DNA from: Promethearchaeota archaeon
Lineage (GTDB): Archaea; Asgardarchaeota; Lokiarchaeia; Sigyniarchaeales; SOKP01
Assembly (NCBI GenBank): GCA_048941285.1
Contig: JBHLNS010000003.1
Span: forward strand, 83,736-147,735
Reading direction: 5' to 3'
Length of the DNA: 64,000 nt
Shown one piece after another: positions 7,136-26,651 of this stretch. The notes beneath the pieces are model-generated. The model saw only the letters and a program-made list of their open reading frames with translations. It was not told the origin of the DNA and made no database searches. The position numbers and the translations under genes were made by a program. The stretch's first letter is position 1, and each line of letters begins with the position of its first letter.

Positions 7136-10100
7136 ATGTCAAAAGAAGAAGGTAAAATTAAACAAGGCACAATAGCAGAGTACATGCGTAAGCGAACTCA
7201 ACTAGTTGGTTTTGAATTTGGTTATTGGAAACATGTTCAATATTGTGCTGAATTTATTGATAATGCCTTAGACGCCATTGAAAGTTTTCAATGGAAAGAA
7301 TTAAAAAAAACAGATTCTAAAATAAAATTCTCTTTGGATCAAGAATTATTCCTAGAAAAATTTTCTATTGTTGACACCGCTAAAGAAGAAAAAAAATCTC
7401 AACATTTAAATAATGGAGCAAAGCAAACATTAATGCAGGAGTTAGGTATTGAAATTATTGAACCAAATTCAAAAGATATTCAAGAATTAGAAGAAAAAGA
7501 GGAAGAATCTGAAGATGTAATTACCACGGAAGAATTAGAAGTAGAAGAGGAAGTTCAAAGAATAATCGATGACATGCAAGAAATAATTAAACCCGTTGAA
7601 AATGTAATTGATGTAGAACCAATAGTAGTGGTTCGTATAAGAGAATATGAAGCACCCTCTTTTTTAACATCTGAAATCAGTCAAAAAAATATTATGAGTT
7701 ATACATTTGAAATTTTTGATAACGGGACAGGAATGTCAAAAATTGATCTTAGAAAATTTGGGAGATATCTTGCTTCTTCAAAATCTATGGAATTAAAACA
7801 AACTCGAGGTAGTCAAGGTTTTGGTGCCCCAAGCGCTTTTAGTGATGCTCAAAATACAACTGGCAAACCTGTTATCACAGTATCGAAGTCTGTCGACAAT
7901 ATTTATGCAACTGTAACAGAATTTTTTACGACTTCCAAAAATGAGAAAAAATATTTAATTCACCCAACTGATATTGACAGCTTTTTTCTTCATGGTACGT
8001 ATATTAAACTAAATTATCTAAATGTAAAATATGTCAAAGGATTTGTTGAAAAATATATTGAAGAGACTGCATTTATGAATCCTCATGTCACAATAATTTA
8101 CATTGATCCTGAAGGGAAGGAAAAAATTTACCGAAGATTAGCTACATCTTTCCCAGATGAACCCAAATATGCTAAACCTCATCCTTCCTCGACAAATATA
8201 GGGGATCTACAAGATTTAATTACAAAATCAGAAAATAAATCAATTTCTGCATTTCTACAAGATAATTTTGTAAGGATGAGTTCAAAAACAGCAAAAGAAA
8301 TAGTAGACATTGCTGAAAGGGATTTACAGGATCAATTAAAACTCCTAATTTTAGAGGATGGATTTGTAAATATAGCAGAAAAGAAGACAGATGACATTAA
8401 CTTCATGAGATATGAAAAACGGGTTTATGGACGTTCTGATAACCCCAGAGACAAATTAATTATTTATCAAGTCGAATCAGAAGATTTAAAGGAGAAATAT
8501 TGGAAATTAGTCAATAATTATAACAAATTCATTAAAGATTATGAAAAAATAAATAAAGAAATAAAGAAACTAAATAATCGCATTGAAAAAACTGAGACTC
8601 AAAAAGAAATAAAAAATATTGAGAAAGATATTAAAAAACTCTTAAACGAGATAGATACTATTAGAACTCAAAAAGATAAAATCAAATTAGATTTGAATAT
8701 ATTGTTTAAAAATGCAAAAGAAGGATTAATTGAATTAAAAAAGTTAAAAAACAGAACAGATTTTGAAGATGTTCTCAATAAAGTTCTTATTTCAAAAGTA
8801 AAGCCAATTGAATTAACGAAAGAACAATTTAATTCTCTATTTCTAGCTTTTAAGTCTGTTAAGTATATGGCACCTCCAACAGATACAGCAATTCCCGTAG
8901 GAGAATCAACTCTAGAAAATACTTTAATTAAAGAAATCGGATTAAGAATTTCAGAAAATATTGATGATTTTGCAGGTCACGTTGAAAATGTTAACCAAAC
9001 CTATGAATTATTACGCGAAGATAAAAAAAAAACCCCATTTGTAGAAAGTAATGAAATTGATGATGATGCAATCAATAATATTTCAATACAGTCAGAAGAA
9101 GTTATCAATTTAAACTCAGAAATATTAGGAACTATTGACATTGTTGATGAAGTTATTGATCAAGAGCAAAAAAAGCAATACATCGATGACCTTATCCTTT
9201 ATTCTGATACTGTTTCCATAGATACATACCAAACTGTATTTGAATATTTCATCGAGAATTATACAAAGGATGATGATTTTGTAGCTGCAGAAACTAGAGC
9301 TCCCACAAGTGGGAAAGGATTAGCTTATGTTGTTGAAGCTGTTATGGCATATTCAAGAAATCTAGAAGTACCCAAACGATCTAGGGATGTTTTATCTAGA
9401 TTCGTAAATAGAACCCCAAAATTAAGAGATAGTGCAGACTGCGCAATCACCAAAGCAGTTCAATCAGTTAATTGGAAAAACTACAATCTCGATACATATG
9501 ATAATAATTTACCAAAAGGACCAATTAAATTATTAGTTAATGTTTCCGGACCTTTTGTACATCTAATGTTTAAATCCCAATCAAAAAACGCATTAGCTGA
9601 TGATGAAGATTTAATTAAAGAAATTAAATATTGCTTGGAAGCAATAGGTAGAAGATTGAGAATATACATTAATAGAAAAGCAAGTCTTCATAAAAGTGAG
9701 AAAAGGGCTAGTTTAATAGAAAAATATATACCACTCTTTGTTAACAGCTTATATAATATTGCCTCTCAAGGCGAAAGTATACATAAATCAAAGCTGGATA
9801 AGAAAGAATTGGAGGACTTAATGAAGAATGCAATAGGTAAAAAACCAACTCCTATTTTGAAAGCTACAGAACCAGTAGAAATTAAAGAAAAGGTAATTAA
9901 AGAAGAAAAAGTGATAGAAAAACCATCTGAATTACCCCCTGTTGATAAGGAGGTAGAATCTAAAAAAGAGCTATTTTCTGAGAAAACTCTTAAAAATTGG
10001 ACAAAAAATGAGTTAATTGAATATTGTAATGAACATAATATTAACGTGTTATCAAAAGATACAAAAACTACTATTATTAGCAGAATTATTGAATCCTATA

Positions 10101-10486
10101 AAAAACCAATTGAAGTAAAACCTATAGAATTAAAAGTTCCAGAACCTCTTGAAGTAGGTCTTGATACAATACCAGGAAAACAAGTACAACTGCCAATTTC
10201 TAAAACAAAAGCTTCAACTATAGTATCTCCTAAAAGAATCCCTCCTAAATCTAAACCAAAACCATCAAAACAAACCCAAACAACATTACCTATAATAACC
10301 ACCGAAAAATTATTAAATGTTTTATCTTATGACTGGCAAACTATTAAACATCTTATTTTCAAATTAAAAATTAAAGATATGATGGATGCTCGGTATCTAC
10401 AGCTTAAACTCAAGGAATTAGAACGAAAAGGACAAGTTCTAGTTGAATCAAAAATGGGTAAAAGACAATGGAAATTGAAAAAGTAA
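7136..10486 (+). CDS. top6B: DNA topoisomerase VI subunit B, unusually long (1116 aa) with several insertions and a C-terminal extension.
   Basis: GHKL/Bergerat motifs are present: AEFIDNALDA (N box), FDNGTGM (G1) and QTRGSQGFG. A KPHP segment precedes the H2TH region. Transducer-like segments include ETRAPTSGKGLAYVVEA and RFVNRTPKL. The gene sits immediately upstream of top6A. Confidence 0.85.
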   Translation: MSKEEGKIKQGTIAEYMRKRTQLVGFEFGYWKHVQYCAEFIDNALDAIESFQWKELKKTDSKIKFSLDQELFLEKFSIVDTAKEEKKSQHLNNGAKQTLMQELGIEIIEPNSKDIQELEEKEEESEDVITTEELEVEEEVQRIIDDMQEIIKPVENVIDVEPIVVVRIREYEAPSFLTSEISQKNIMSYTFEIFDNGTGMSKIDLRKFGRYLASSKSMELKQTRGSQGFGAPSAFSDAQNTTGKPVITVSKSVDNIYATVTEFFTTSKNEKKYLIHPTDIDSFFLHGTYIKLNYLNVKYVKGFVEKYIEETAFMNPHVTIIYIDPEGKEKIYRRLATSFPDEPKYAKPHPSSTNIGDLQDLITKSENKSISAFLQDNFVRMSSKTAKEIVDIAERDLQDQLKLLILEDGFVNIAEKKTDDINFMRYEKRVYGRSDNPRDKLIIYQVESEDLKEKYWKLVNNYNKFIKDYEKINKEIKKLNNRIEKTETQKEIKNIEKDIKKLLNEIDTIRTQKDKIKLDLNILFKNAKEGLIELKKLKNRTDFEDVLNKVLISKVKPIELTKEQFNSLFLAFKSVKYMAPPTDTAIPVGESTLENTLIKEIGLRISENIDDFAGHVENVNQTYELLREDKKKTPFVESNEIDDDAINNISIQSEEVINLNSEILGTIDIVDEVIDQEQKKQYIDDLILYSDTVSIDTYQTVFEYFIENYTKDDDFVAAETRAPTSGKGLAYVVEAVMAYSRNLEVPKRSRDVLSRFVNRTPKLRDSADCAITKAVQSVNWKNYNLDTYDNNLPKGPIKLLVNVSGPFVHLMFKSQSKNALADDEDLIKEIKYCLEAIGRRLRIYINRKASLHKSEKRASLIEKYIPLFVNSLYNIASQGESIHKSKLDKKELEDLMKNAIGKKPTPILKATEPVEIKEKVIKEEKVIEKPSELPPVDKEVESKKELFSEKTLKNWTKNELIEYCNEHNINVLSKDTKTTIISRIIESYKKPIEVKPIELKVPEPLEVGLDTIPGKQVQLPISKTKASTIVSPKRIPPKSKPKPSKQTQTTLPIITTEKLLNVLSYDWQTIKHLIFKLKIKDMMDARYLQLKLKELERKGQVLVESKMGKRQWKLKK

Positions 10487-10487
10487 T

Positions 10488-11681
10488 ATGGTAGATAATA
10501 TGGCTAAAAAAGAAAATAAAAAAGAATTACAGGCAGCGAGAGAATTATTTAATTCTTATTTAGAAAAAGGTAAAGAAGAAAAACTTTTCGAATTACCAAA
10601 TGGTACTGTTAAAATTGATGATCTTAACAGAAAGCAAACTGTTGAGAGATTATATAAATTAGTGGATAACGTTATTACGCAAATTTATAACTCAGGTCGT
10701 CCATCAATTCATCTTCCTGCAAGAACAAGTTCTAACATAATATGGGATGAAGAAAATGATCTTTTACTTTTAGGTGAACAGATTGTAGAAAAACAATTTC
10801 ATACTCTAACAAGTGTAGCAGATATTACAAGATTAATGCGTGTTCTTGAGATAGTAAACGAGTTATTAGGAAAGGATATCCACGCTACAAAAAGGGAAAT
10901 TTTCTATACGGATGTCAAATTATTCACAGAACAGAAGAATAGTGATAAAACCATCGAAGATGTGGCTACAATGTTATATACTACTAGAAATGCAACTCAT
11001 ATAGTCGCTTCTGCAAAAGGAATGTGTGTTGGAAGACTCAGAATAAGAGATCGAAATGATATAATAGATCTTGAAGGTTTAGGCAGTGGAGGTTGGATGA
11101 TATCACCTATGTTAGATAATATAGAAATAATAGAATCAGATGCAGAATTTATATTAGTAGTAGAAAAGGATGCTGCTATGATACGTTTAGCGGAAGATAG
11201 GTTTTGGAGGAAATATCCTTGTATTATACTTACAGCGAAAGGAGCAGCAGATATTGCTACGCGCATGTTCCTAAAGCGTTTAAGTAAAGAATTGAAGTTA
11301 CCTGTTTTTAGTTTAGTAGATAGCGACCCATATGGGCATTATATTCATAGTGTTTATTTAAGGGGGTCAAAAAGATTAAGTTACGAATCTCCTTTCTTAG
11401 CTACTCCAAATATTAAATTACTTGGCGTTTTGACACGAGATCTCGATAAATATAATATCCCAGAAGAAGTGAGACTCCCTATGAAACCAATGGATATTAA
11501 ACGAACCAAGGAATTATTAAATGAAGATTTCGTCAAAAAGAATAAACACTGGGAGACTGATTTAAAATTGGCTCTAAAAATTAAAAAAAAAGCGGAAATT
11601 CAAGCTCTTTCGCAACATGGATTTGAATTTCTCACAAATATTTACCTTCCAGAAAAATTAACAACTGGTGATTGGATATAA
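10488..11681 (+). CDS. top6A: DNA topoisomerase VI subunit A (Spo11 family).
   Basis: KREIFYTD carries the catalytic-Tyr context. Toprim motifs are VVEKDA and VDSDPYG. The start lies 1 nt after the top6B stop. Confidence 0.9.
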   Translation: MVDNMAKKENKKELQAARELFNSYLEKGKEEKLFELPNGTVKIDDLNRKQTVERLYKLVDNVITQIYNSGRPSIHLPARTSSNIIWDEENDLLLLGEQIVEKQFHTLTSVADITRLMRVLEIVNELLGKDIHATKREIFYTDVKLFTEQKNSDKTIEDVATMLYTTRNATHIVASAKGMCVGRLRIRDRNDIIDLEGLGSGGWMISPMLDNIEIIESDAEFILVVEKDAAMIRLAEDRFWRKYPCIILTAKGAADIATRMFLKRLSKELKLPVFSLVDSDPYGHYIHSVYLRGSKRLSYESPFLATPNIKLLGVLTRDLDKYNIPEEVRLPMKPMDIKRTKELLNEDFVKKNKHWETDLKLALKIKKKAEIQALSQHGFEFLTNIYLPEKLTTGDWI

Positions 11682-12067
11682 AACTATTTTATAAAGAAAA
11701 CGGTAGTATTGTTCAGCTTATTGAAATGGAAAAAATTCAAGAATGGCCATTAGAATTGCCGTTTATTTTCGTTGAGTATATAAAAAGTAATAAAATTAGA
11801 TCTTATAGAGATGCGAAAGTAGAAGCTGAAGTTTCAAAATATCTGAATGAAATTTTAACCAAAATAGCAATTCCAAAAATTAAAGACATTTTCGAAACTT
11901 CTAATCAAGAAGAAATTCTCTCTACTCTTTCTATTTTTGAAGAACTTTCAGAAACAAATTCTAGAGCTGTGAAACCAATTGAAAATATGCTTGAAAATTT
12001 AGTAAAACAAACTGATAAAAAAATTGGATCAAAAGCTCAAAAAATTCTTACTAATATCAAAAAATAA
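11672..12067 (+). CDS. Small hypothetical protein, possibly a single HEAT/ARM-like hairpin. The start is uncertain.
   Basis: The ORF opens with TTG and overlaps the top6A stop by 10 nt. The next in-frame ATG is at codon 19. The C-terminal half is helical and HEAT-like. No motif is recognised. Confidence 0.35.
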   Translation: MDIKLFYKENGSIVQLIEMEKIQEWPLELPFIFVEYIKSNKIRSYRDAKVEAEVSKYLNEILTKIAIPKIKDIFETSNQEEILSTLSIFEELSETNSRAVKPIENMLENLVKQTDKKIGSKAQKILTNIKK

Positions 12068-13515: not shown

Positions 13516-16500
13516 GTGAAGATCTTGGTAATAGAAATAATTCTTCTTTCAGTGTTCTTATTTTTTTTTACACTTGGATTTTATTTAATTTATAAGCAAG
13601 TATCTTTAGTTAAGAAAGGAGAAATGCGTAATAAGGACATATTTCAATGTATTATTTATGGACTCATTTTTAGCTTGTCAATTCTGTTAGTATTTACCGT
13701 TGCTGTAATTTTTGCTGTAAGATCGCCTGAATTATGGGATCCAGCAACTACCCCTCCAGATGTACCTCCTTTATCACTTCTTATACCTTTTATTTTTTGC
13801 TTAATATATATTACATTTTATCCTATGGTAGATTTTCTATTTATCGCGTTGAGTAAAGAATCAGATGAAGGATTAACACCATTTCACAAATTTATTAACA
13901 TTAAGATAATAAATTTGTCAAGAAAGAAAATCATAAAAGTATTAATTGCTTTAGTTTTTTATTTATTGGTTTTTATACTCCCTCCTATACTCCTGTCAAT
14001 ATTAGGAGTACCTCTTATTATAATTTGGATAACTTGGATGTTGGTTTATCCACTTATGATATTGACTTTTTATGGATCTAAAGGTTACATTGCTGGTATC
14101 TCAGATGCCTATTACCACATTCCTGATATAAAAAGATCTATATTCCTTAATTTCGAAAATAGTAAAAGAGGAATGAAACAATTCTTATCCCAACCTATAC
14201 ATTATATTATACTAGGATTGATGCTATTTGTATTTGTATGGGCATGGATCTCATTATTCCAAACTATAATCTTCTTTTTCACAGGAACATTAGCAATATC
14301 GACAATGTCTTCTGTCTTTGTATTTGTAACCCTTTTTTTTGGAATTTTAGGATATTTTACTCGTTTTTGGGGACGTAAAATAAAATATAGAGGAATTGAT
14401 ATTTATTTCGCTGCCTATTTAATGGCATCTATAGGAATCAATGTTTTGGTCAATTTTCTAATTGTAAATCCTGAAAAGTTACAATATACTTTTAATTTAT
14501 GGATAGTAACAAGTGAAATTTATCCCGATAATAGTTCGAGTTTAGCGTGGGCAGCTGTGATTGAAGAAATTGTATTGATAATTTTTACTTCATATTATTT
14601 TTTAGCCATAAATAGTGATTTTGTGATGAATATCAAATATTCAAAAATTACTAAATCTGGACAAACATTTGATCCTATCCCGCTCTTTAATTTTATTAAG
14701 CATAAAAATCCCAAAATAAGAGAACATGCTGTAGAGACTATAAATATGATGTTTGAACGAATTCCTTTAAAAGATGAAACAATTCTCAATGATTGGAAAT
14801 TTAAAAATTCATTACTGGACGGAGTAAGTGATTATAATACACATTCTAGAAAAATTTGTAGCCAATTATTACTTAAAATAGAAAATGATGTTCCATTGCT
14901 TCTACTGGAATGGGTAATAGAAGCATTGCAATCTCCAAATTACGATAAAAGTATCCCTATAGCAAGAACTCTTTTAAAGGCAGATTTTAGTTTCATAGAA
15001 AAAATACCTCAAGAGTTAATACTTAATCTCATTGAAGATTCAGAATGGAGATTAAGATTAATAGCATTAAAGATACTGGCTAGATCAAATACTAAAATAA
15101 AAAGTTTAATTCCAAGTTTAAACATCAAAAGTTTAATAAATGACCCAAATAGCGAAATAGTGGTTGAGATTTTTAATCTATTAGCTAATTGTTCCTATAA
15201 ACTACCTATTAATCTAATAATTGATAAAATTTTTCACGTTAATAATGAAATTAGTGCTGCAGCAATTAAAAATATAAGAAATCTCGACATTAAACAAATT
15301 GATCGAAAAATCGTCTCTAAAATTATTCCCTTAATTAAAGATCCATCTAGTTCTGTAAGAGCATCGATTTTTGATGTCCTTGCGAATATTGGCAATTTCA
15401 AAAAAAATAGTATACCAATTTTACCATTTTTAGAAGGTTTAACTGATTCGAACGAAAAAGCAAGACATGCAGCAATAAATGCTCTTGAAAAGTACTTTGA
15501 AGAAGAACCTGGACTATTAGATATTGATGCCATTATTAATAGAGTTGATCCAAATAATTTTGAGATTTTAAATGATATTGTTAAACTTCTAAGAAAACTA
15601 TGGAAATTTGATTCAGAAAAAATTTTAACTACTTTTCTGATATTAATAAAATTTGAGAATGATAAATTAAGAGAGAATATTTCCGAGATCTTATCAGAAA
15701 AATCTATTAAAAACCCTGATTTAGTAATTACGAATTTGATTAAAATACCAGATGTTACAACTTACATAACTAAAGGAATTATTTCAAAAACACTAATAAA
15801 AATTGGAAATAAAAACCCTGAAACTGTTATTCCTGTTTTATTAAAATATTCAACTGCTGAAGATATTGAGGTACGATTAAATGCAATCGAATCAATTGAT
15901 GGATTAATAGAAGAATTCATTAATTATATTGATGTAAAGCCAATTATTTCAATTCTGCAAAAAGATGAGAATTACCAAGCAAAGATAAAGGCTGCAGGTA
16001 TAATTTCAAAAATAGCTCAAAAAGATGCTTCTTTAATGAAGCCATTCATTTCAGATTTTTTCTCAGCTATAACTGGACAAGATTCAAAAGTAAAGATTGT
16101 TCTTACTAAATCACTACTTGAAATAGCAAAAAAATCCCCAGAGATTATTCCAATCAACGATATTATGAATTTACTTTATGATAAAGATTCCTTTATACGT
16201 GAAACATGTGTTAAAATATTAGGATTTGCAGGACATAAACTTCCAATATCAATTATTGATGTTTTAATAACTACCGCTTTAAATGACGATGAATGGATTG
16301 TAAGGGAAGCAACAGTGACAAGTTTAGGAAAAATAATTGGTTTTATCGATAATAAAGAAAAAATCATTGAAAGACTTATTTCTCTCCTTGACGATGAACA
16401 AAGTTGGGTCCGCTGGTCTGCTTTAAATATATTATCTAATATCAGTGAAGTGAGTAGCTCTCATATTCCATTTAATAAGCTACAAATTAATTTAAAAAGC

Positions 16501-16872
16501 GATGATCCTAAAATCAGAGAAGCATCCGCTAGATTAAGTAAGATTTACAGCAATAAAATTGAACAAGTAATTGACGAATTAATAAATATCCTAGGGGATG
16601 AATCAAAAGAAGTTAGAACTAGTATGATTAATACTTTTGTTGAGATTATAAAACGTATAGGACTTAATCGAATATTAAGTAGGCTTTTAGAAAATTTAAG
16701 TGGAAAAGGTTCTTTAACAACTCAACGTTCAATTGCTTTAATTTTAGGTAGAACAGTTAATTATGAAAATGAAAAAATTAAGAAGAGAGTAATATCCCTT
16801 TTAAAAATAAGATGTGAGATGAGTCAAGACCCGCTAATTTGTGAAACACTCCAAAATTTAAGGGGAAGTTAA
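13516..16872 (+). CDS. Polytopic membrane protein fused to a ~750-aa cytoplasmic HEAT-repeat array.
   Basis: The first ~370 aa contain about 9-10 hydrophobic spans. The remainder has many HEAT-like repeats (DSEWRLRLIALKILAR, DDEWIVREATVTSLGKI, DEQSWVRWSALNILSNI, DDPKIREASARLSKI, ESKEVRTSMINTFVEI). The start codon is GTG. Confidence 0.6.
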   Translation: MKILVIEIILLSVFLFFFTLGFYLIYKQVSLVKKGEMRNKDIFQCIIYGLIFSLSILLVFTVAVIFAVRSPELWDPATTPPDVPPLSLLIPFIFCLIYITFYPMVDFLFIALSKESDEGLTPFHKFINIKIINLSRKKIIKVLIALVFYLLVFILPPILLSILGVPLIIIWITWMLVYPLMILTFYGSKGYIAGISDAYYHIPDIKRSIFLNFENSKRGMKQFLSQPIHYIILGLMLFVFVWAWISLFQTIIFFFTGTLAISTMSSVFVFVTLFFGILGYFTRFWGRKIKYRGIDIYFAAYLMASIGINVLVNFLIVNPEKLQYTFNLWIVTSEIYPDNSSSLAWAAVIEEIVLIIFTSYYFLAINSDFVMNIKYSKITKSGQTFDPIPLFNFIKHKNPKIREHAVETINMMFERIPLKDETILNDWKFKNSLLDGVSDYNTHSRKICSQLLLKIENDVPLLLLEWVIEALQSPNYDKSIPIARTLLKADFSFIEKIPQELILNLIEDSEWRLRLIALKILARSNTKIKSLIPSLNIKSLINDPNSEIVVEIFNLLANCSYKLPINLIIDKIFHVNNEISAAAIKNIRNLDIKQIDRKIVSKIIPLIKDPSSSVRASIFDVLANIGNFKKNSIPILPFLEGLTDSNEKARHAAINALEKYFEEEPGLLDIDAIINRVDPNNFEILNDIVKLLRKLWKFDSEKILTTFLILIKFENDKLRENISEILSEKSIKNPDLVITNLIKIPDVTTYITKGIISKTLIKIGNKNPETVIPVLLKYSTAEDIEVRLNAIESIDGLIEEFINYIDVKPIISILQKDENYQAKIKAAGIISKIAQKDASLMKPFISDFFSAITGQDSKVKIVLTKSLLEIAKKSPEIIPINDIMNLLYDKDSFIRETCVKILGFAGHKLPISIIDVLITTALNDDEWIVREATVTSLGKIIGFIDNKEKIIERLISLLDDEQSWVRWSALNILSNISEVSSSHIPFNKLQINLKSDDPKIREASARLSKIYSNKIEQVIDELINILGDESKEVRTSMINTFVEIIKRIGLNRILSRLLENLSGKGSLTTQRSIALILGRTVNYENEKIKKRVISLLKIRCEMSQDPLICETLQNLRGS

Positions 16873-22172: not shown

Positions 22173-25100
22173 ATGTCAGATTTAAGAGATGAATTATTAA
22201 AAGGCGGTATCAATAAAAAAAGGGTTATAGGAGTAGCATTAGTCGCAATCCTTTTGATTGGTATGTTTGCGTTCTCTACAGTTCTACTTAGTTTTCTTTT
22301 TGGAACTCAAAGACCAAACCCTAATAAGGAAAAAGCTGATACTCCATGGGAAGATGCCGATTTAATTGATAATTATCCCTTTGATGAGGATTTTTGGCAA
22401 GATTTGTTAGATCAAGTAGATGATCCCGCTTCTCTTCTTGATATGTTATCAGAAATGTTTGATGGAAATATTGATGATTTAGATTTAGGTAATTTTTCTC
22501 AAGGATTACTTGATCTTCTCTATTCAGGAGCGGGAGAAATTGAAGTTTTTAGAGTGTATAACTATCTCTTATTTGATAATATGGAAGATGTTTTATGGAA
22601 ATATGAAGCCTTTGATGAATACAATGGTGAGGGTTGGACGTCAAATGCAGTTAGTAATCTTTACAATTTCTACACTTACGGTGATTATCTCGCAAATTAT
22701 TTCCCCGATCCTGAAATTTTAAAATTAAAAATGCCTTTATCTCCTAATATTGGGCTTAATTCGATGAATCTACCTACTCTCTTTCCTAGTCCTTTTGTTA
22801 TGGATACAATTTCTGCACCTAATTTAAATCCGACTCCACGTACATTATATAAAGATGAATATAATTGTACCACAATAGATCTTTCATTTTCTTCTGCTGA
22901 TGATGTAAATATGACATTTGAGATATTTGGTTTTTATAATTCCTTACCATCAAATGAAGAATTGAACAATAGTGCAGTTATTGTTACTAATCCTACGCCT
23001 GAGTATTTGAGTTTAAAGAATAAATTTTTACAATTACCTCCTACAATTCCAGTCTATAAGACTAATAATCCCTATTTTACTAATCACTTTAATATCCTTA
23101 ATAATCAAATAAATGTAAATGATCATGCTTTTTGGAAAGCAAATAAAATCAGAAATTATTTGCAAACTCAATTTTCATTTCCAATGAATCCTACCGACTT
23201 TAATCCTGCTCCAGATGGAAGAGACATTGTTGATTGGTTTTGTCAAACTCAACAAGGATTATGGTCTGATTTTGCTTCAGCTTTTTGTGCTTTTGCAAGA
23301 GCTTTTGGAGTTTTGTGTCGATTTGTTGATGGCTTTAATAGTATGATGATTGAAGAAATTTGGGATAATGATGAAGGTCAATGGGGATTCGCGATAAAAT
23401 ATAAAAATCTTTATAATTGGGCAGAGATATATGTCCCAACCGATATTTATGGAAATGGAAAATGGGTACAATTTGATATTTTTGACAGCTTTGGAGGTGG
23501 AGGAAGCCCAATAATTGGAGGGAATTATAACATTACAGTTTCAACCGATCAAGCTGCCTATAACCGACCAGATACAGCTAGTATAACGGCTAGTGTTAAT
23601 TCAAACACAAACCCAATAAATAATTTAACTATAACTTTCAGAGATTATACTACTGGGAGAATACTAGGACAAGATGATACAGATTTGAGTGGAATTGCTA
23701 CAATCCAGACTAATTTTAATGCTACTGACATCGTTGGTCCTCATTTAATTGAGGCAAGATATGATTTTTTTAATGCAGGTTATAATCTTACGACTATATT
23801 GGGAGATATTTCAATTGCTTTAACTAATGTTAACCCTGGACAAATAAATGTCTCTGATTATCTACCAGATGTTACTAATGTTGCAGGGTTTGTATATGAT
23901 CCATTAAATGGAAATGGAGTAAAGGGTCCTGAATTAAATATCCGCTTGTTAAGAAAGGGAACCAATAGTGAAATAATTAATCCATTTTCGCCTTCAGCAA
24001 TAAATACTACATATGATGGTGATTTCAGTGATTTCTTGAATCTTAATCACAATACTGCTGGAAATTATGAAATCCGAGCTGATCTTAACGGAACTTGGTG
24101 GGTTGACACTCCTTTTGGGCCCTATTCATACGCTCTCTTATCTTTCATATTTCAAGTTCCTTATTTCTATATATCAAATTCAAGCAATAGACTTGATTTT
24201 AATATCACAAAATCTTTAGATGTGTGGTTTTATATCGATGGTTCACCATCGAATTATCCGAATATACCTAGAGTTTCTAGATACCATAATTTAAATCTAA
24301 CTGCGGAGGTATTTTCGGTTACTTCGGGACCAATATCAAACAAACGTGTATTTTTTTATGATCATTCAAGAGGAGATATTCTGATTGGCTCTGACATTTC
24401 AGATCTAAATGGGATTGCCTCAATTATTTATTCTGTTGGAGATAATTGTGCTGCTGGACCTAATTTATTATATGCAAACATTGGTTTACAAAGTAATTAT
24501 TCTTATTATATCTTAGATGAACAGCCTACAATAAATATACTTTCTGGCCCAACACCTCGTATTATAAACCGTACGGGTGGTGGTGCGACGGAATTTAATA
24601 TTATTGGAGAAATTGTTGATAGCACAAATAACTCTTTACCTATAAAATATTCTGAAATTAGCTTAATTTTATTGAAGAGTGGATTGGATTATTCATCATA
24701 TTTAAACCCAAGTGATAGTTATCCTTATCAAACTGATGAAACAGGTACTTTTGATTTGACATTCGGAGTAGCTGCCAATATACCCCCTGGTAATTATACA
24801 CTAAGATTAGATTTTAATGGTACTATTAATCTTTCATCCTATCCTTATTCGTATCTTTTCAATATACCTTACTTAAATACTTCTACTTACTTTGTTAATG
24901 AATTACAAATCGATTCACCAACCAGTTTACAATTTGATTTTTGGATAAATGGAATTGCATCTGATGATGCGATCAATCCAGTTATTAATCGTAATGATGA
25001 TCTTAATCTCACAGTATTGATTCAATATAGTGGTATGCCAATAGACGATGGAGAATGGGTTTACTTCTATGATTTCACTCAAGATAATCTGTTTATTGGT

Positions 25101-26651
25101 TCAGATCAAACAAGTTCAGGGAATGCTGAAATTATTTATTCTACAGGATTGAATACTACAGCAGGCCCACATCTGATTTATGCCACATGGAATAATAAAT
25201 ATAATTATTCTTATTTTATTTTGGATGCCCCTATAAATGTGAATCTTGATATCTGTCCACAACCTAGGGAAGTCAATCGCAGTGGAGCAGATGGGAGAAA
25301 TTTCTTAATTCATGGATATCTAAATGATGCTTTTAATGGAAATCCAATAAAAAATGGAGAAATAAATGTCTTTATGTATGATGGACCTACTGACGTATCA
25401 TTTTATTTAAATCTAGTTTCAGGCTCTTTACAATTAGGGTCATCAGGAGAAATAGATTTAACTTTTTCCGTTTCAAGCTCAACTCCCGCTAAAAATTATA
25501 CTTTACGAGTTAATTTTTATGGTATTTTTATATATACAAATCCTTATTATCCTCAATTTTTCAATTTATGGTATATAAATAATTTTACAGATACAGCTCC
25601 TGGTTTAAATGATCTCAGAGTTATCGATCCAAATGATGTAGATATTTACTTCTTTATAGATGGAAATCCAACACAAACGTTTTATTGGGATGGGAATCCT
25701 CCTGAGATATATAATCGAGGAGATCTAATCAATTTCAGTGTATTTATTCTTCAAAGTGGACTTCCAGTTAGTTCTGGTACTGTTTCATTTACAGATATTT
25801 ATACGGGTACCCCATTGGGAACTCAATCTGTAATTAATGGAAATGCTTCTATTATAGTTGATACTTCTAGTTGGCATGCGGGACTTCATCAAATAAGAGC
25901 TCAATGGTCTGGATCTGATACAACAAATATGACATATGTGGTGATAAATGAACATATTAACATTTTTAGCAATACAGATCAAAGTTCAATTTTAAGAGAT
26001 ATTGATAATTTTATTGTTTCAGGTACAGTCAGGGAACATGGAGAATTTTTAAGAGGCCTAAATCTAAATATTGTTTTATTAGATAACTCTTATTCTGACG
26101 TTTCAGGTCTATATTTAATTGGTGCTCAGACATTAACTATTAATAATGATGGAACTTATCAATTTTTTAACTCAATCGCCTTATCTTGCCCACAAGGAGA
26201 TTATTTTATTAACATTAGTTTTACAGGTGGTTTAAACGCTCCAGGAATATCTATGAGTGATTATATGGTTCATAATAGTAGCTTACTAATCTCAATTGAT
26301 ATTACCGCAAGTACTTATATTCTTGGAAATTATGAGACTAACGTCGTTAAAGATGATTGGTATTACGGTGACGATTGTTATGTGTATGGAAATCTATATT
26401 GGGATAATGGAACTGCAATACCGTTTATGGAAATTAATGTGACTATTAGAGATGGAACGGGATCAATCTTAGCTACTCAAGTAGGATTTACTGATATCAA
26501 TGGATTTTTTAATCTAACTTTTATTGTCGGAGATTGGTTAGATAACACCGAAGTTTGGGTCAACTTTTATCCCGATGATCCAGACAATTTTGGTGTTCCT
26601 GAGGGATTATTTATTATTTTAACAGAGCAAGAAGTGTTTAGGCAAGTTTAA
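22173..26651 (+). CDS. Giant N-terminally anchored surface protein with a transglutaminase-core-like domain (catalytic residues substituted) and four tandem Ig-like repeat units.
   Basis: One N-terminal TM span is present. QQGLWSDFASAFCAFARAFGVLCRFVDGF..YNWAEIYVP..KWVQFD aligns to the G-x-C-x-x-FA..R..G-x-P-x-R / H-A-W / D pattern. Repeated ~230-aa units follow, with many N-x-S/T sequons. Confidence 0.7.
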   Translation: MSDLRDELLKGGINKKRVIGVALVAILLIGMFAFSTVLLSFLFGTQRPNPNKEKADTPWEDADLIDNYPFDEDFWQDLLDQVDDPASLLDMLSEMFDGNIDDLDLGNFSQGLLDLLYSGAGEIEVFRVYNYLLFDNMEDVLWKYEAFDEYNGEGWTSNAVSNLYNFYTYGDYLANYFPDPEILKLKMPLSPNIGLNSMNLPTLFPSPFVMDTISAPNLNPTPRTLYKDEYNCTTIDLSFSSADDVNMTFEIFGFYNSLPSNEELNNSAVIVTNPTPEYLSLKNKFLQLPPTIPVYKTNNPYFTNHFNILNNQINVNDHAFWKANKIRNYLQTQFSFPMNPTDFNPAPDGRDIVDWFCQTQQGLWSDFASAFCAFARAFGVLCRFVDGFNSMMIEEIWDNDEGQWGFAIKYKNLYNWAEIYVPTDIYGNGKWVQFDIFDSFGGGGSPIIGGNYNITVSTDQAAYNRPDTASITASVNSNTNPINNLTITFRDYTTGRILGQDDTDLSGIATIQTNFNATDIVGPHLIEARYDFFNAGYNLTTILGDISIALTNVNPGQINVSDYLPDVTNVAGFVYDPLNGNGVKGPELNIRLLRKGTNSEIINPFSPSAINTTYDGDFSDFLNLNHNTAGNYEIRADLNGTWWVDTPFGPYSYALLSFIFQVPYFYISNSSNRLDFNITKSLDVWFYIDGSPSNYPNIPRVSRYHNLNLTAEVFSVTSGPISNKRVFFYDHSRGDILIGSDISDLNGIASIIYSVGDNCAAGPNLLYANIGLQSNYSYYILDEQPTINILSGPTPRIINRTGGGATEFNIIGEIVDSTNNSLPIKYSEISLILLKSGLDYSSYLNPSDSYPYQTDETGTFDLTFGVAANIPPGNYTLRLDFNGTINLSSYPYSYLFNIPYLNTSTYFVNELQIDSPTSLQFDFWINGIASDDAINPVINRNDDLNLTVLIQYSGMPIDDGEWVYFYDFTQDNLFIGSDQTSSGNAEIIYSTGLNTTAGPHLIYATWNNKYNYSYFILDAPINVNLDICPQPREVNRSGADGRNFLIHGYLNDAFNGNPIKNGEINVFMYDGPTDVSFYLNLVSGSLQLGSSGEIDLTFSVSSSTPAKNYTLRVNFYGIFIYTNPYYPQFFNLWYINNFTDTAPGLNDLRVIDPNDVDIYFFIDGNPTQTFYWDGNPPEIYNRGDLINFSVFILQSGLPVSSGTVSFTDIYTGTPLGTQSVINGNASIIVDTSSWHAGLHQIRAQWSGSDTTNMTYVVINEHINIFSNTDQSSILRDIDNFIVSGTVREHGEFLRGLNLNIVLLDNSYSDVSGLYLIGAQTLTINNDGTYQFFNSIALSCPQGDYFINISFTGGLNAPGISMSDYMVHNSSLLISIDITASTYILGNYETNVVKDDWYYGDDCYVYGNLYWDNGTAIPFMEINVTIRDGTGSILATQVGFTDINGFFNLTFIVGDWLDNTEVWVNFYPDDPDNFGVPEGLFIILTEQEVFRQV

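Follow-up and report, generated by a model that had tools for sequence, protein, structure and literature searches.

An enlarged topoisomerase VI B subunit with conserved inserts and a modular C-terminal tail in Loki-lineage Asgard archaea

A Loki-lineage archaeon encodes a topoisomerase VI (Topo VI) B subunit of about twice the usual size, whose additional length is made up of three internal inserts and a C-terminal tail that recur in its relatives. The gene, top6B, occupies positions 7136-10486 (+ strand) of a 64,000-nucleotide stretch of DNA from a Promethearchaeota archaeon (Lokiarchaeia; contig JBHLNS010000003.1, positions 83,736 to 147,735 of the forward strand), hereafter the window. 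It is an open reading frame (ORF) of 1116 amino acids (aa). Topo VI, the type II topoisomerase found throughout the archaea, is the ancestor of both the meiotic Spo11/TOPOVIBL machinery and plant Topo VI. Judged by its sequence, the window protein is a genuine ATPase (B) subunit of Topo VI, of type IIB, in a long Loki-type Asgard form. The folded parts of its additions are under purifying selection, and we think it fairly probable that they enlarge the DNA-binding surface of a working enzyme.

Catalytic landmarks and layout of the long B subunit

The window protein is recognized as Top6B by family models and by its motifs. The ORF begins with ATG and has no internal stop codons. Its product passes the NCBIfam model PRK04184 (“DNA topoisomerase VI subunit B”) with an E-value of 2.2e-94 and 316.9 bits (cut-off 274), and Pfam Topo-VIb_trans (PF09239) matches aa 712-856 at 4.5e-29. 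With TIGR01052 the score is 287.9 bits, short of the cut-off of 380.7, as the match is fragmented by the inserts. An identical database protein (P0001), from a metagenome-assembled genome (MAG), is annotated as “DNA topoisomerase VI subunit B [Promethearchaeota archaeon]”.

The core Top6B blocks are all present and in order, as the initial annotation of this DNA had stated. Every catalytic landmark and all the motifs it quoted were located in the ORF, among them AEFIDNALDA (aa 38-47), FDNGTGM (aa 194-200) and a helix-extension-helix (HeH)-like stretch (aa 952-988), and the C-terminus reads ...DARYLQLKLKELERKGQVLVESKMGKRQWKLKK. The N box residues E39, N43 and D46 (E-x-x-x-N-x-x-D), the G1 box D195-G197-G199 (D-x-G-x-G) and the G2 box R224-G225-S-Q-G228-F-G230 do not vary among 82 homologs or among 13 diverse Asgard forms. 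In the transducer, W780-K781-N782-Y783 (WKxY) aligns with WKQY of Methanosarcina mazei, K781 corresponding to K401, and the switch lysine K817 aligns with M. mazei K435. The basic stalk residues R839, R840, R842, R847 and R857 are retained as invariant columns of the homolog alignment. Two of the three DNA contacts of the M. mazei H2TH domain are also kept (R380 for K268 and K576 for K308).

The G-segment is the DNA duplex that Topo VI cleaves. The M. mazei counterparts of these stalk and H2TH residues contact the arms of the G-segment, according to two structural studies (PMC5922973, PMC13040014). In the same studies, the H2TH domain and the transducer stalk grip the bent arms, and bending is coupled to ATPase dimerization and to cleavage.

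Structure prediction agrees with this assignment for the N-terminal part. An AlphaFold2 (AF2) model of aa 1-400, built on an alignment of 142 sequences, short Asgard forms and plants among them, has a predicted local distance difference test score (pLDDT) of 74.7 and a predicted template modeling score (pTM) of 0.75. In Foldseek, Top6B structures fill the top ranks for this model (E 4e-17 to 1.6e-12, 240-285 columns), and MutL, Hsp90 and GyrB come next. A full-length model, based on 82 close homologs, was used only for local secondary structure in confident stretches.

The additional length lies in four places. Characterized Top6B proteins are about half the size of the 1116-aa protein (530 aa in S. 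shibatae and 621 aa in M. mazei), as the initial annotation had stated. Its best PDB sequence match, M. mazei Top6B (2q2e_B, E 2.4e-58), aligns in four colinear pieces: query residues 7-50 with chain residues 12-55, 190-394 with 75-282, 554-600 with 286-332, and 713-871 with 335-489. The spacing between the N box and G1 is 156 residues against ~36 in canonical representatives, that between G2 and the PPTD motif is 356 against ~200, and that between PPTD and TRxP is 140 against ~30. The alignment thus breaks exactly where the initial annotation had placed three internal inserts and a tail, at nucleotides 7300-7690, 8456-8771, 9040-9270 and 9776-10486. All four sites hold, with the boundaries refined to 7286-7615, 8336-8785, 8936-9268 and 9836-10483; for insert 2, mainly a coiled coil had been seen and the preceding beta segment had been overlooked.

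From the N-terminus, and all on the + strand, the protein reads as follows. An N-terminal strap and the N-box helix, with E39, N43 and D46 (aa 1-50; 7136-7285), align with M. mazei 12-55. Insert 1 (aa 51-160; 7286-7615) is delimited by the N box-G1 spacing, the AF2 model and dN/dS, the ratio of nonsynonymous to synonymous substitution rates. The GHKL (Bergerat) ATPase core with the G1 and G2 boxes (aa 161-345; 7616-8170) is defined by invariant columns, Foldseek and dN/dS. The first half of the H2TH domain, including R380 (aa 346-400; 8171-8335), is separated by insert 2 (aa 401-550; 8336-8785) from the second half, which contains K576 and the PPTDTAIPVG motif (aa 551-600; 8786-8935). Then come the acidic, helical and variable insert 3 (aa 601-711; 8936-9268), identified by the PPTD-TRxP spacing, charge and AF2, and the transducer (aa 712-900; 9269-9835), supported by PF09239, the alignment to M. 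mazei 335-489 and invariant columns. The tail consists of linker 1 (aa 901-944; 9836-9967), an HeH/SAP-like module (aa 945-990; 9968-10105), linker 2 (aa 991-1052; 10106-10291) and a C-terminal winged-helix-like domain (aa 1053-1116; 10292-10483).

In roughly half of the database homologs the annotated start is a methionine equivalent to M17 (MRKRTQLVGF...), which removes the N-terminal strap. The window ATG at 7136 encodes this strap (7136-7186), which aligns with M. mazei residues 12-28. The M17 starts in MAG annotations are probably a systematic start-codon miscall.

Structure of the inserts and tail modules

Insert 1 combines ordered ends with a disordered acidic center. In the aa 1-400 model, the N-box helix is extended (aa 31-57, pLDDT ~88) and carries the invariant W53. 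It is followed by an acidic loop of low confidence (aa 58-130, ~70 aa, pLDDT 29-52), which is predicted to be disordered, and by an ordered helix (aa 131-154, pLDDT 76-93). Strand beta1 (aa 163-172, pLDDT 95) is paired with beta2 (aa 186-195), so that insert 1 precedes beta1. The net charge is -18 over aa 51-172, and aspartate and glutamate make up 45% of the core at aa 101-140.

Insert 2 splits the H2TH domain cleanly and leaves it otherwise intact. A hidden Markov model (HMM) of H2TH, derived from short Asgard forms, aligns its positions 1-52 with aa 349-400 (E 3.4e-13) and resumes at aa 551-590 with positions 57-96 (E 8.9e-10), which places the split at 400/551. The insert itself is the best-predicted part of the full-length model (pLDDT 75-89). 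It comprises a four-stranded beta-meander (aa 403-446) and two antiparallel helices of ~37 residues each (aa 449-485 and 489-525). A basic loop in the beta segment is conserved (E427-K-R-x-x-G432-R-S-x-x-x-R438-D-K440), with E427, K428, R429, G432, R433, R438 and K440 as its conserved residues. Lysine and arginine make up 24% of the insert, and aspartate and glutamate 19%. A search of the beta segment against the PDB gave coiled-coil noise and no significant match, and weak Foldseek matches of the insert include coiled-coil insertions such as the LSD1 tower (E 0.05-0.27).

Insert 3 is predicted to form five helices (pLDDT 53-71) and has a net charge of -18. It is the least conserved of the inserts (identity to homologs 0.33-0.59). 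Composition thus agrees with the acidic and K/E-rich character that had been assigned to these segments at the outset.

The tail carries two small folded modules on flexible linkers. Linker 1 is K/E/P-rich and predicted to be disordered (pLDDT <50), and so is the P/K-rich linker 2, which has 12 prolines and a net charge of +6. The HeH module has helices at aa 949-953, 957-966 and 977-989 (pLDDT ~80 in the full-length model), and aa 945-990 show the two-helix pattern L..WT..EL..Y...H.I...S....K..II..I. A second, paralogous copy of this module in homolog P0121 matches Rho_N at 1.1e-9 (38.5 bits, cut-off 24.9) and reaches Ish1 with 26.6 bits, equal to the cut-off; it falls under the cut-offs of HeH and SAP. 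PF07498 matches are precomputed for several homologs. The terminal segment is predicted as helix-helix-helix-strand-strand (pLDDT 75-81), with a net charge of +9, an isoelectric point of 10.1 and invariant D1084, A1085 and R1086. The full-length model gives a Foldseek match to HlyU, a winged-helix regulator of the ArsR type, over 60 columns at a root-mean-square deviation (rmsd) of 1.6 A and a probability of 1.00; HlyU/ArsR matches overall span 60-66 columns at rmsd 1.6-2.7 A with E 0.2-0.4. When the winged-helix profile was compared with PDB sequences, the best matches were all helix-turn-helix or winged helix-turn-helix proteins, none of them significant (E 0.056-0.72), and a search of the isolated tail against Pfam gave no significant match.

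These results support a tail that carries DNA-binding-type modules. The helix-extension-helix/SAP-like motif proposed initially is backed by the P0121 copy, which passes Rho_N, and not by the window copy, which is sub-threshold for all families. The proposed terminal winged helix is backed by its predicted topology and its ArsR-type structural matches, while a significant sequence match is lacking. A likeness of this segment to Z-alpha domains was dropped as not significant (E 0.5-0.7). The tyrosine that contacts Z-DNA is presumably not conserved, going by a manual alignment to the ADAR1 Z-alpha sequence.

Conservation and distribution across Asgard lineages

The long form is conserved at full length. 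We scanned one genome per GTDB species and found a relative in 252; all counts out of 80 given here refer to the best 80 of these 252. In the best 80 genomes, residues ~2-1115 are covered without interruption at 53-86% identity. The genomes come from many independent projects, are nearly all labeled Promethearchaeota and include two closed chromosomes (CP070831 and CP070805). More than 115 non-redundant protein clusters have lengths of 1040-1182 aa at an identity of at least 62%, and among close homologs the inserts are fixed in length, with a gap fraction of ~0. The gene order coaBC, top6B, top6A, a 131-aa ORF and a phosphoribosyltransferase gene is kept in ~70 of the 80 loci. Whether orthologs in related genomes share the inserts, a question raised by the initial annotation, is thus answered by the same full-length layout throughout this set.

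Folded modules are under purifying selection while the linkers drift. We compared the window gene with seven orthologs; dS is near saturation (0.5-1.5), and the resulting dN/dS values are approximate. They are 0.01-0.04 for the GHKL core and transducer, 0.03-0.09 for aa 51-100, 0.16-0.50 for the acidic center of insert 1 (aa 101-140) and 0.04-0.14 for aa 141-172. Insert 2 gives 0.06-0.19, insert 3 0.12-0.29, the HeH module 0.05-0.22 and the winged helix 0.04-0.11. The two tail linkers range over 0.31-0.95 (0.31-0.95 for linker 1 and 0.38-0.78 for linker 2).

This conservation bears on two alternative origins of the extra length. Mis-assembly, a frameshift fusion with neighbors or a miscalled ORF in a MAG could each produce an overlong protein, and the window DNA does come from a MAG, taxon labels are inconsistent in related MAG batches, and many database homologs are called from M17 and not M1. 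Such an artefact is nevertheless extremely improbable given the recurrence of one uninterrupted layout in 80 species-level genomes from many independent studies, two closed chromosomes among them, and in more than 115 non-redundant clusters. The inserts are nearly gap-free among close homologs and under purifying selection, and the canonical segments on either side of each insert share one frame. The possibility allowed for at the outset, unconserved inserts with frame errors, is therefore refuted. The idea that the inserts are left over from mobile or self-splicing elements, whether inteins or domesticated insertion elements, is just as implausible. Searches of the full protein and of the inserts on their own turned up no Hint, intein or homing-endonuclease family, and the +1 Cys/Ser/Thr and His-Asn junction residues are missing at the insert boundaries. 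The inserts are inherited vertically, keep their positions and diverge in step with the lineages, although inteins had to be stripped from some archaeal Top6A and Top6B sequences according to Villain et al. 2022 (PMC9348778). We reject an intein or mobile-element origin for want of such families and of splice-junction residues.

Insert 1 is an Asgard-wide feature, and the other additions belong to the Loki lineage. An exhaustive search of cluster representatives recovered a long clade of 1100-1270 aa at 42-62% identity, after which canonical enzymes follow at ~35%. The source names of the long forms are Promethearchaeota/Lokiarchaeia, including Ca. Harpocratesius. An insert at the position of insert 1 occurs in every Asgard lineage sampled, while inserts 2 and 3 and the tail occur in the Loki lineage only. 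Profiles of the Loki modules each match 113-115 of 115 close homologs (113 for HeH and 114 for the winged helix). In the eight distant long forms, the beta segment of insert 2 is found in all eight, the winged helix in seven, and HeH and insert 3 in two each. Apart from the insert-1 helix, no Loki module profile matches any of 119 short Asgard forms (Thor, Baldr and relatives; four matches to that helix), any of 101 other representatives (one match) or any of the three Heimdall-type proteins (two matches). The suggestion that the additions are lineage-specific elaborations is thus confirmed: they are real and conserved, and all but insert 1 are restricted to the Loki lineage.

Short Asgard forms share only the first of these elaborations with the window protein. 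They are 600-780 aa long, are labeled Thorarchaeota (by many submitters) or Baldrarchaeia, and have 42-49% identity to the window protein. Common to both are the position of insert 1, a Trp after the N box and a helix before the beta1 “EP”. Their N box-G1 spacing is 111-131 residues; both motifs were located in 114 sequences, and 103 of these have a spacing of 127. Unlike the window protein, they keep canonical G2-PPTD (210) and PPTD-TRxP (30) spacings and are without insert 2, insert 3, HeH and a winged-helix tail. At the single Thor locus that was looked at, it is the A subunit, a Top6A of 776 aa, that carries the extra DNA-binding modules. On this Thorarchaeota contig (SDNP01000006.1, locus L081, 5486-7816), Top6A is about twice its usual size, with N-terminal HHH_5 domains before TP6A_N and Toprim, and the B subunit is short.

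Heimdall-type Top6B proteins are enlarged at the same site as the Loki forms, by other means. These proteins (P0133, 953 aa; P0136, 1271 aa; P0143), of which only the cluster of P0133 carries the label “Heimdallarchaeota”, also have the Asgard insert 1. At the exact site of insert 2 they have 4-5 tandem H2TH-like repeats (P0133 aa 335-738, P0136 aa 551-951, P0143 aa 166-564) in place of the beta-meander and coiled coil of the Loki lineage, and insert 3 is missing. This comparison shows the H2TH loop, beside the DNA-arm contacts, as an evolutionary hot spot that has been enlarged in two unrelated ways, as the Loki tower and as the Heimdall-type tandem H2TH. With the B-subunit modules of the Loki lineage, the H2TH repeats of the Heimdall type and the helix-hairpin-helix (HhH) domains of the Thor Top6A, the Asgard clade has fitted DNA-binding-type modules to Topo VI in more than one way.

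Several side observations concern individual members of this set. P0136 has, by eye, winged-helix-like segments at both ends; the N-terminal one, which was scanned, gave Pfam MCM6_C at E 0.0012, just under the cut-off, and the Loki winged-helix profile matched neither end. In P0127 and P0129, two of the distant long forms (N box-G1 spacings of 301 and 322), insert 1 is larger by 150-170 aa of K/E/N-rich, helical-looking sequence right after the conserved Trp. Record titles and content also disagree in places: Loki-type top6B loci with 61-82% identity and the same synteny are titled Hermodarchaeota, Hodarchaeota, Thorarchaeota or Odinarchaeota, among them L003, L004, L012, L017, L020, L041 and L071, of which L041 is titled “Candidatus Nanopelagicaceae bacterium”. 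This suggests mislabeled or mis-binned MAG contigs. In the JBHL... MAG batch, Hod, Hermod, Thor and Odin names sit on clearly Loki-type sequences, and such labels were not used for the distribution argument.

The Loki layout has no counterpart in the better known Top6B proteins. M. mazei Top6B (2q2e_B; DNA complexes 9o0g and 9o8p) has the same order of N-strap, GHKL, H2TH, transducer and C-terminal appendage and is paired with top6A. It shares with the window protein the catalytic Glu/Asn, G1/G2, WKxY, the switch lysine and the basic stalk. In M. mazei, on the other hand, no insert separates the N-box helix from beta1, H2TH is in one piece, and insert 3 is missing. The M. mazei C-terminal domain (CTD) has an immunoglobulin (Ig)-like fold (PMC9348778). 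An Ig-like CTD was not found in the window protein, whose tail consists of disordered linkers, a three-helix HeH module and a winged helix of three helices and two strands; the phmmer alignment to 2q2e_B ends at chain residue 489. Nor has the H2TH domain been lost as in TOPOVIBL-type proteins; it is retained and enlarged.

Plant TOP6B (Arabidopsis BIN3/RHL3/HYP6 and orthologs; ~670 aa) is a true Top6B with all the ATPase motifs and has ~65 extra aa between the N box and G1. The canonical-Top6B HMM runs unbroken through plant beta1, right after the N box, which places the plant insertion in the beta1-beta2 hairpin. It therefore follows beta1, whereas Asgard insert 1 precedes beta1 (window aa 163-172, pLDDT 95), and we reject homology between the two on account of these different positions. 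An hhalign comparison of Asgard and plant profiles had put plant beta1 on window aa 61-70 and merged the insertions, and the canonical-Top6B HMM failed to place beta1 in the Asgard sequences. We judge the merged alignment to be wrong because the plant insertion follows beta1 and the Asgard insert precedes it.

The initial annotation had suggested that the additions may be relevant to the transition to eukaryotic TOPOVIB-like proteins. None of 118 plant TOP6B proteins matches the profiles of inserts 2 and 3, HeH, the winged helix or the insert-1 helix. With inserts 2 and 3, HeH and the winged helix also found in 0 of 119 short Asgard forms and 0 of three Heimdall-type proteins, and the plant GHKL insertion lying elsewhere, that suggestion finds no support. 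The Loki layout is lineage-specific, and sequence comparison does not support it as a step towards the eukaryotic enzyme. A three-helix transducer end is common to Asgard archaea and eukaryotes according to PMC9665070.

Insertions in the beta1-beta2 hairpin were seen in other Top6B sequences as well. The metagenomic proteins P0151, P0153 and P0185 (~615-646 aa, ~33% identity) have an independent insertion of 85-120 aa there, beta-rich by eye, at the position of the plant insertion and unrelated to it in sequence. P0139, P0416 and P0417 are short forms with a ~20-aa K/E-rich addition at that same position and a K-rich N-terminal extension of ~110 aa. They are labeled Hodarchaeota, a label that may be unreliable because Hodarchaeota-type labels also sat on Loki-type MAG sequences.

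The genes downstream of top6B complete the operon-like arrangement. The top6A gene (10488..11681, +; 397 aa; Pfam TP6A_N 4.9e-18 and TOP6A-Spo11_Toprim 2.1e-59) begins 1 nucleotide past the top6B stop, and the two adjoin in 77 of the 80 related loci. A 131-aa ORF with a TTG start (11672..12067, +) overlaps the top6A stop by 10 nucleotides. It is conserved in 72 of the 80 loci at 38-82% identity, 57 of the 72 with the identical 10-nucleotide overlap, and at the single Thor locus inspected, where Top6B is short, it does not follow top6A. No Pfam or NCBIfam family matches it; aa 58-130 have a weak armadillo/HEAT-like similarity (E 3e-3 to 2e-2, with ~3e-3 against designed ARM proteins). The ORF may be a third operon member, encoding a third subunit or a regulator. 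Two long ORFs lie further downstream, at 13516-16872 (+; 1118 aa) and 22173-26651 (+; 1492 aa).

Possible function and evolutionary meaning

We consider it reasonably probable that the window protein is a functional type IIB Topo VI B subunit whose conserved additions extend its DNA-arm-binding surface and tether DNA flexibly. In such an enzyme, top6B would be co-transcribed with top6A. Insert 2 leaves the H2TH loop between elements that in M. mazei contact the arms of the G-segment, and its basic beta-hairpin and ~55 A helical hairpin could extend or gate the DNA-arm interface. At that site, the additional tandem H2TH copies of the Heimdall type would serve the same purpose. An extended or gated interface would be the simplest reading because of the site of insert 2, its basic hairpin and the multiplication of H2TH at that site in the Heimdall type. 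The HeH module and the basic winged helix, on Pro/Lys-rich flexible linkers, would act as tethered accessory DNA-binding modules, and might raise local DNA affinity or bias substrate choice, like the Ig-like CTD in gyrase-encoding euryarchaea. The acidic and largely disordered inserts 1 and 3 may modulate closure of the ATPase gate or shield the basic modules electrostatically. Regulation of Topo VI by the added modules, as the initial annotation had proposed, is a conjecture.

The literature offers a context for the tail. In Villain et al. 2022 (PMC9348778), lineage-specific globular C-terminal extensions of Top6B are described in gyrase-encoding archaea, Asgard archaea included; a specialization of Topo VI alongside gyrase is proposed; and gyrase is reported in Lokiarchaeota and not in Thorarchaeota. 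This pattern, taken entirely from the literature, fits the presence of a tail in Loki forms and its absence from the short Thor forms.

Several observations weigh against this reading of the long B subunit. A motif search found no gyrase motifs within the 64-kb window. The third M. mazei H2TH DNA contact, R263, is replaced by Gln375, and the KGRR loop is cut to K301-G302. The window copy of HeH lies under every Pfam cut-off, with 17.8 bits and 2.5e-3 for SAP_new25 (cut-off 26.3), 17.2 bits and 6.4e-3 for Ish1 (26.6), and 15.0 bits and 0.02 for SAP (23.9). The winged helix has no significant sequence match and belongs to no Pfam family, and the Foldseek output gives no aligned residues for its HlyU match. 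Inserts 1-3, searched as isolated segments against Pfam, match no known domain and return coiled-coil noise only. The full-length AF2 model is poor (mean pLDDT 54.6, pTM 0.33), and contacts between proteins would be just as plausible a use of coiled coils and acidic tails.

Two other accounts of the additions have to be set beside a DNA-binding role. One is that the added modules are mainly platforms for protein-protein contacts: the insert-2 hairpin would dock a partner, such as the 131-aa ARM/HEAT-like protein, or the hairpins would pair across the Top6B dimer, and in both versions the acidic inserts would bind basic chromatin proteins such as Asgard histones. Among the weak Foldseek matches of insert 2 is the LSD1 tower, an antiparallel coiled coil that interrupts a catalytic domain and binds CoREST. 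In 57 of 72 Loki-type loci the conserved 131-aa ORF overlaps the end of top6A, and the Thor locus lacks it downstream of top6A; the C-terminal half of its product is weakly armadillo-like, and inserts 1 and 3 have a net charge of -18 each. The ARM similarity is nevertheless borderline (E ~3e-3), the coiled-coil matches are generic (F-BAR, SNARE and the like), and the basic loop of insert 2, the basic winged helix and HeH suit nucleic-acid binding better. We hold protein-protein platforms to be possible, if unlikely.

Neutral filler is the other account. The inserts would then be low-complexity, K/E/N/D-rich sequence of an AT-rich genome, placed on surface loops of an enzyme that works as a canonical Topo VI. 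A window G+C content of ~29% and the lack of known domains in inserts 1-3 agree with this. So do the predicted disorder of aa 58-130 and both tail linkers, at dN/dS of 0.16-0.95, and the poor conservation of insert 3 (0.33-0.59 identity; detected in two of the eight distant long forms). What filler does not explain is the behavior of aa 51-100, aa 141-172, insert 2, HeH and the winged helix. These segments have dN/dS of 0.03-0.22, are fixed in length with a gap fraction of ~0 and are confidently predicted as structured. Invariant residues occur among the additions (W53; E427, G432, K440 and Y444; D1084, A1085 and R1086). The insert-2 beta segment and the winged helix also persist at 40-46% overall identity, and do so in P0128, whose tail is Ala/Pro/Gly-rich and not Lys/Asn-rich. 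We rate neutral filler as improbable.

A more elaborate version of the proposed enzyme deserves mention as a long shot. The Loki-type Topo VI might be a three-component, chromatin-tethered enzyme, in which the H2TH tower docks the translationally coupled 131-aa protein or pairs with the second tower across the Top6B dimer, the tail anchors the complex to chromatin and the acidic inserts gate ATPase closure. Plant Topo VI depends on the accessory factors RHL1 and BIN4. If the three-component version were true, it would give archaea a counterpart of this accessory-factor-dependent plant enzyme, and of the C-terminal regions by which eukaryotic Topo II is regulated.

Published work covers part of this picture. 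The conserved Asgard Top6B is described as the archaeal form most closely related to the eukaryotic enzymes (PMC12680538) and as having an extra transducer helix and a “CTD +” (PMC9665070), and a Loki-lineage archaeon, Promethearchaeum syntrophicum, is in culture (PMC11316595). Matched passages of the literature on Asgard Top6B, supplementary figures aside, do not mention an Asgard-wide GHKL insert or insert 3, a split H2TH with a coiled-coil tower or its tandem H2TH variant, or the HeH and winged-helix identity of the Loki tail. Within those passages, C-terminal extensions of Asgard Top6B are already known, and the internal inserts and the Loki layout are largely undescribed.

The Loki elaborations are lineage-specific and absent from plant TOP6B, and should not be read as eukaryote-like. 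Across the Asgard clade, the ATPase fold of Top6B contains an insert. Accessory modules of DNA-binding type appear on the B subunit in the Loki lineage, and at the single Thor locus studied they are found on the A subunit. Deletion and domain-swap constructs follow from this layout, and would bear on how type IIB enzymes tune G-segment arm sensing and substrate choice.

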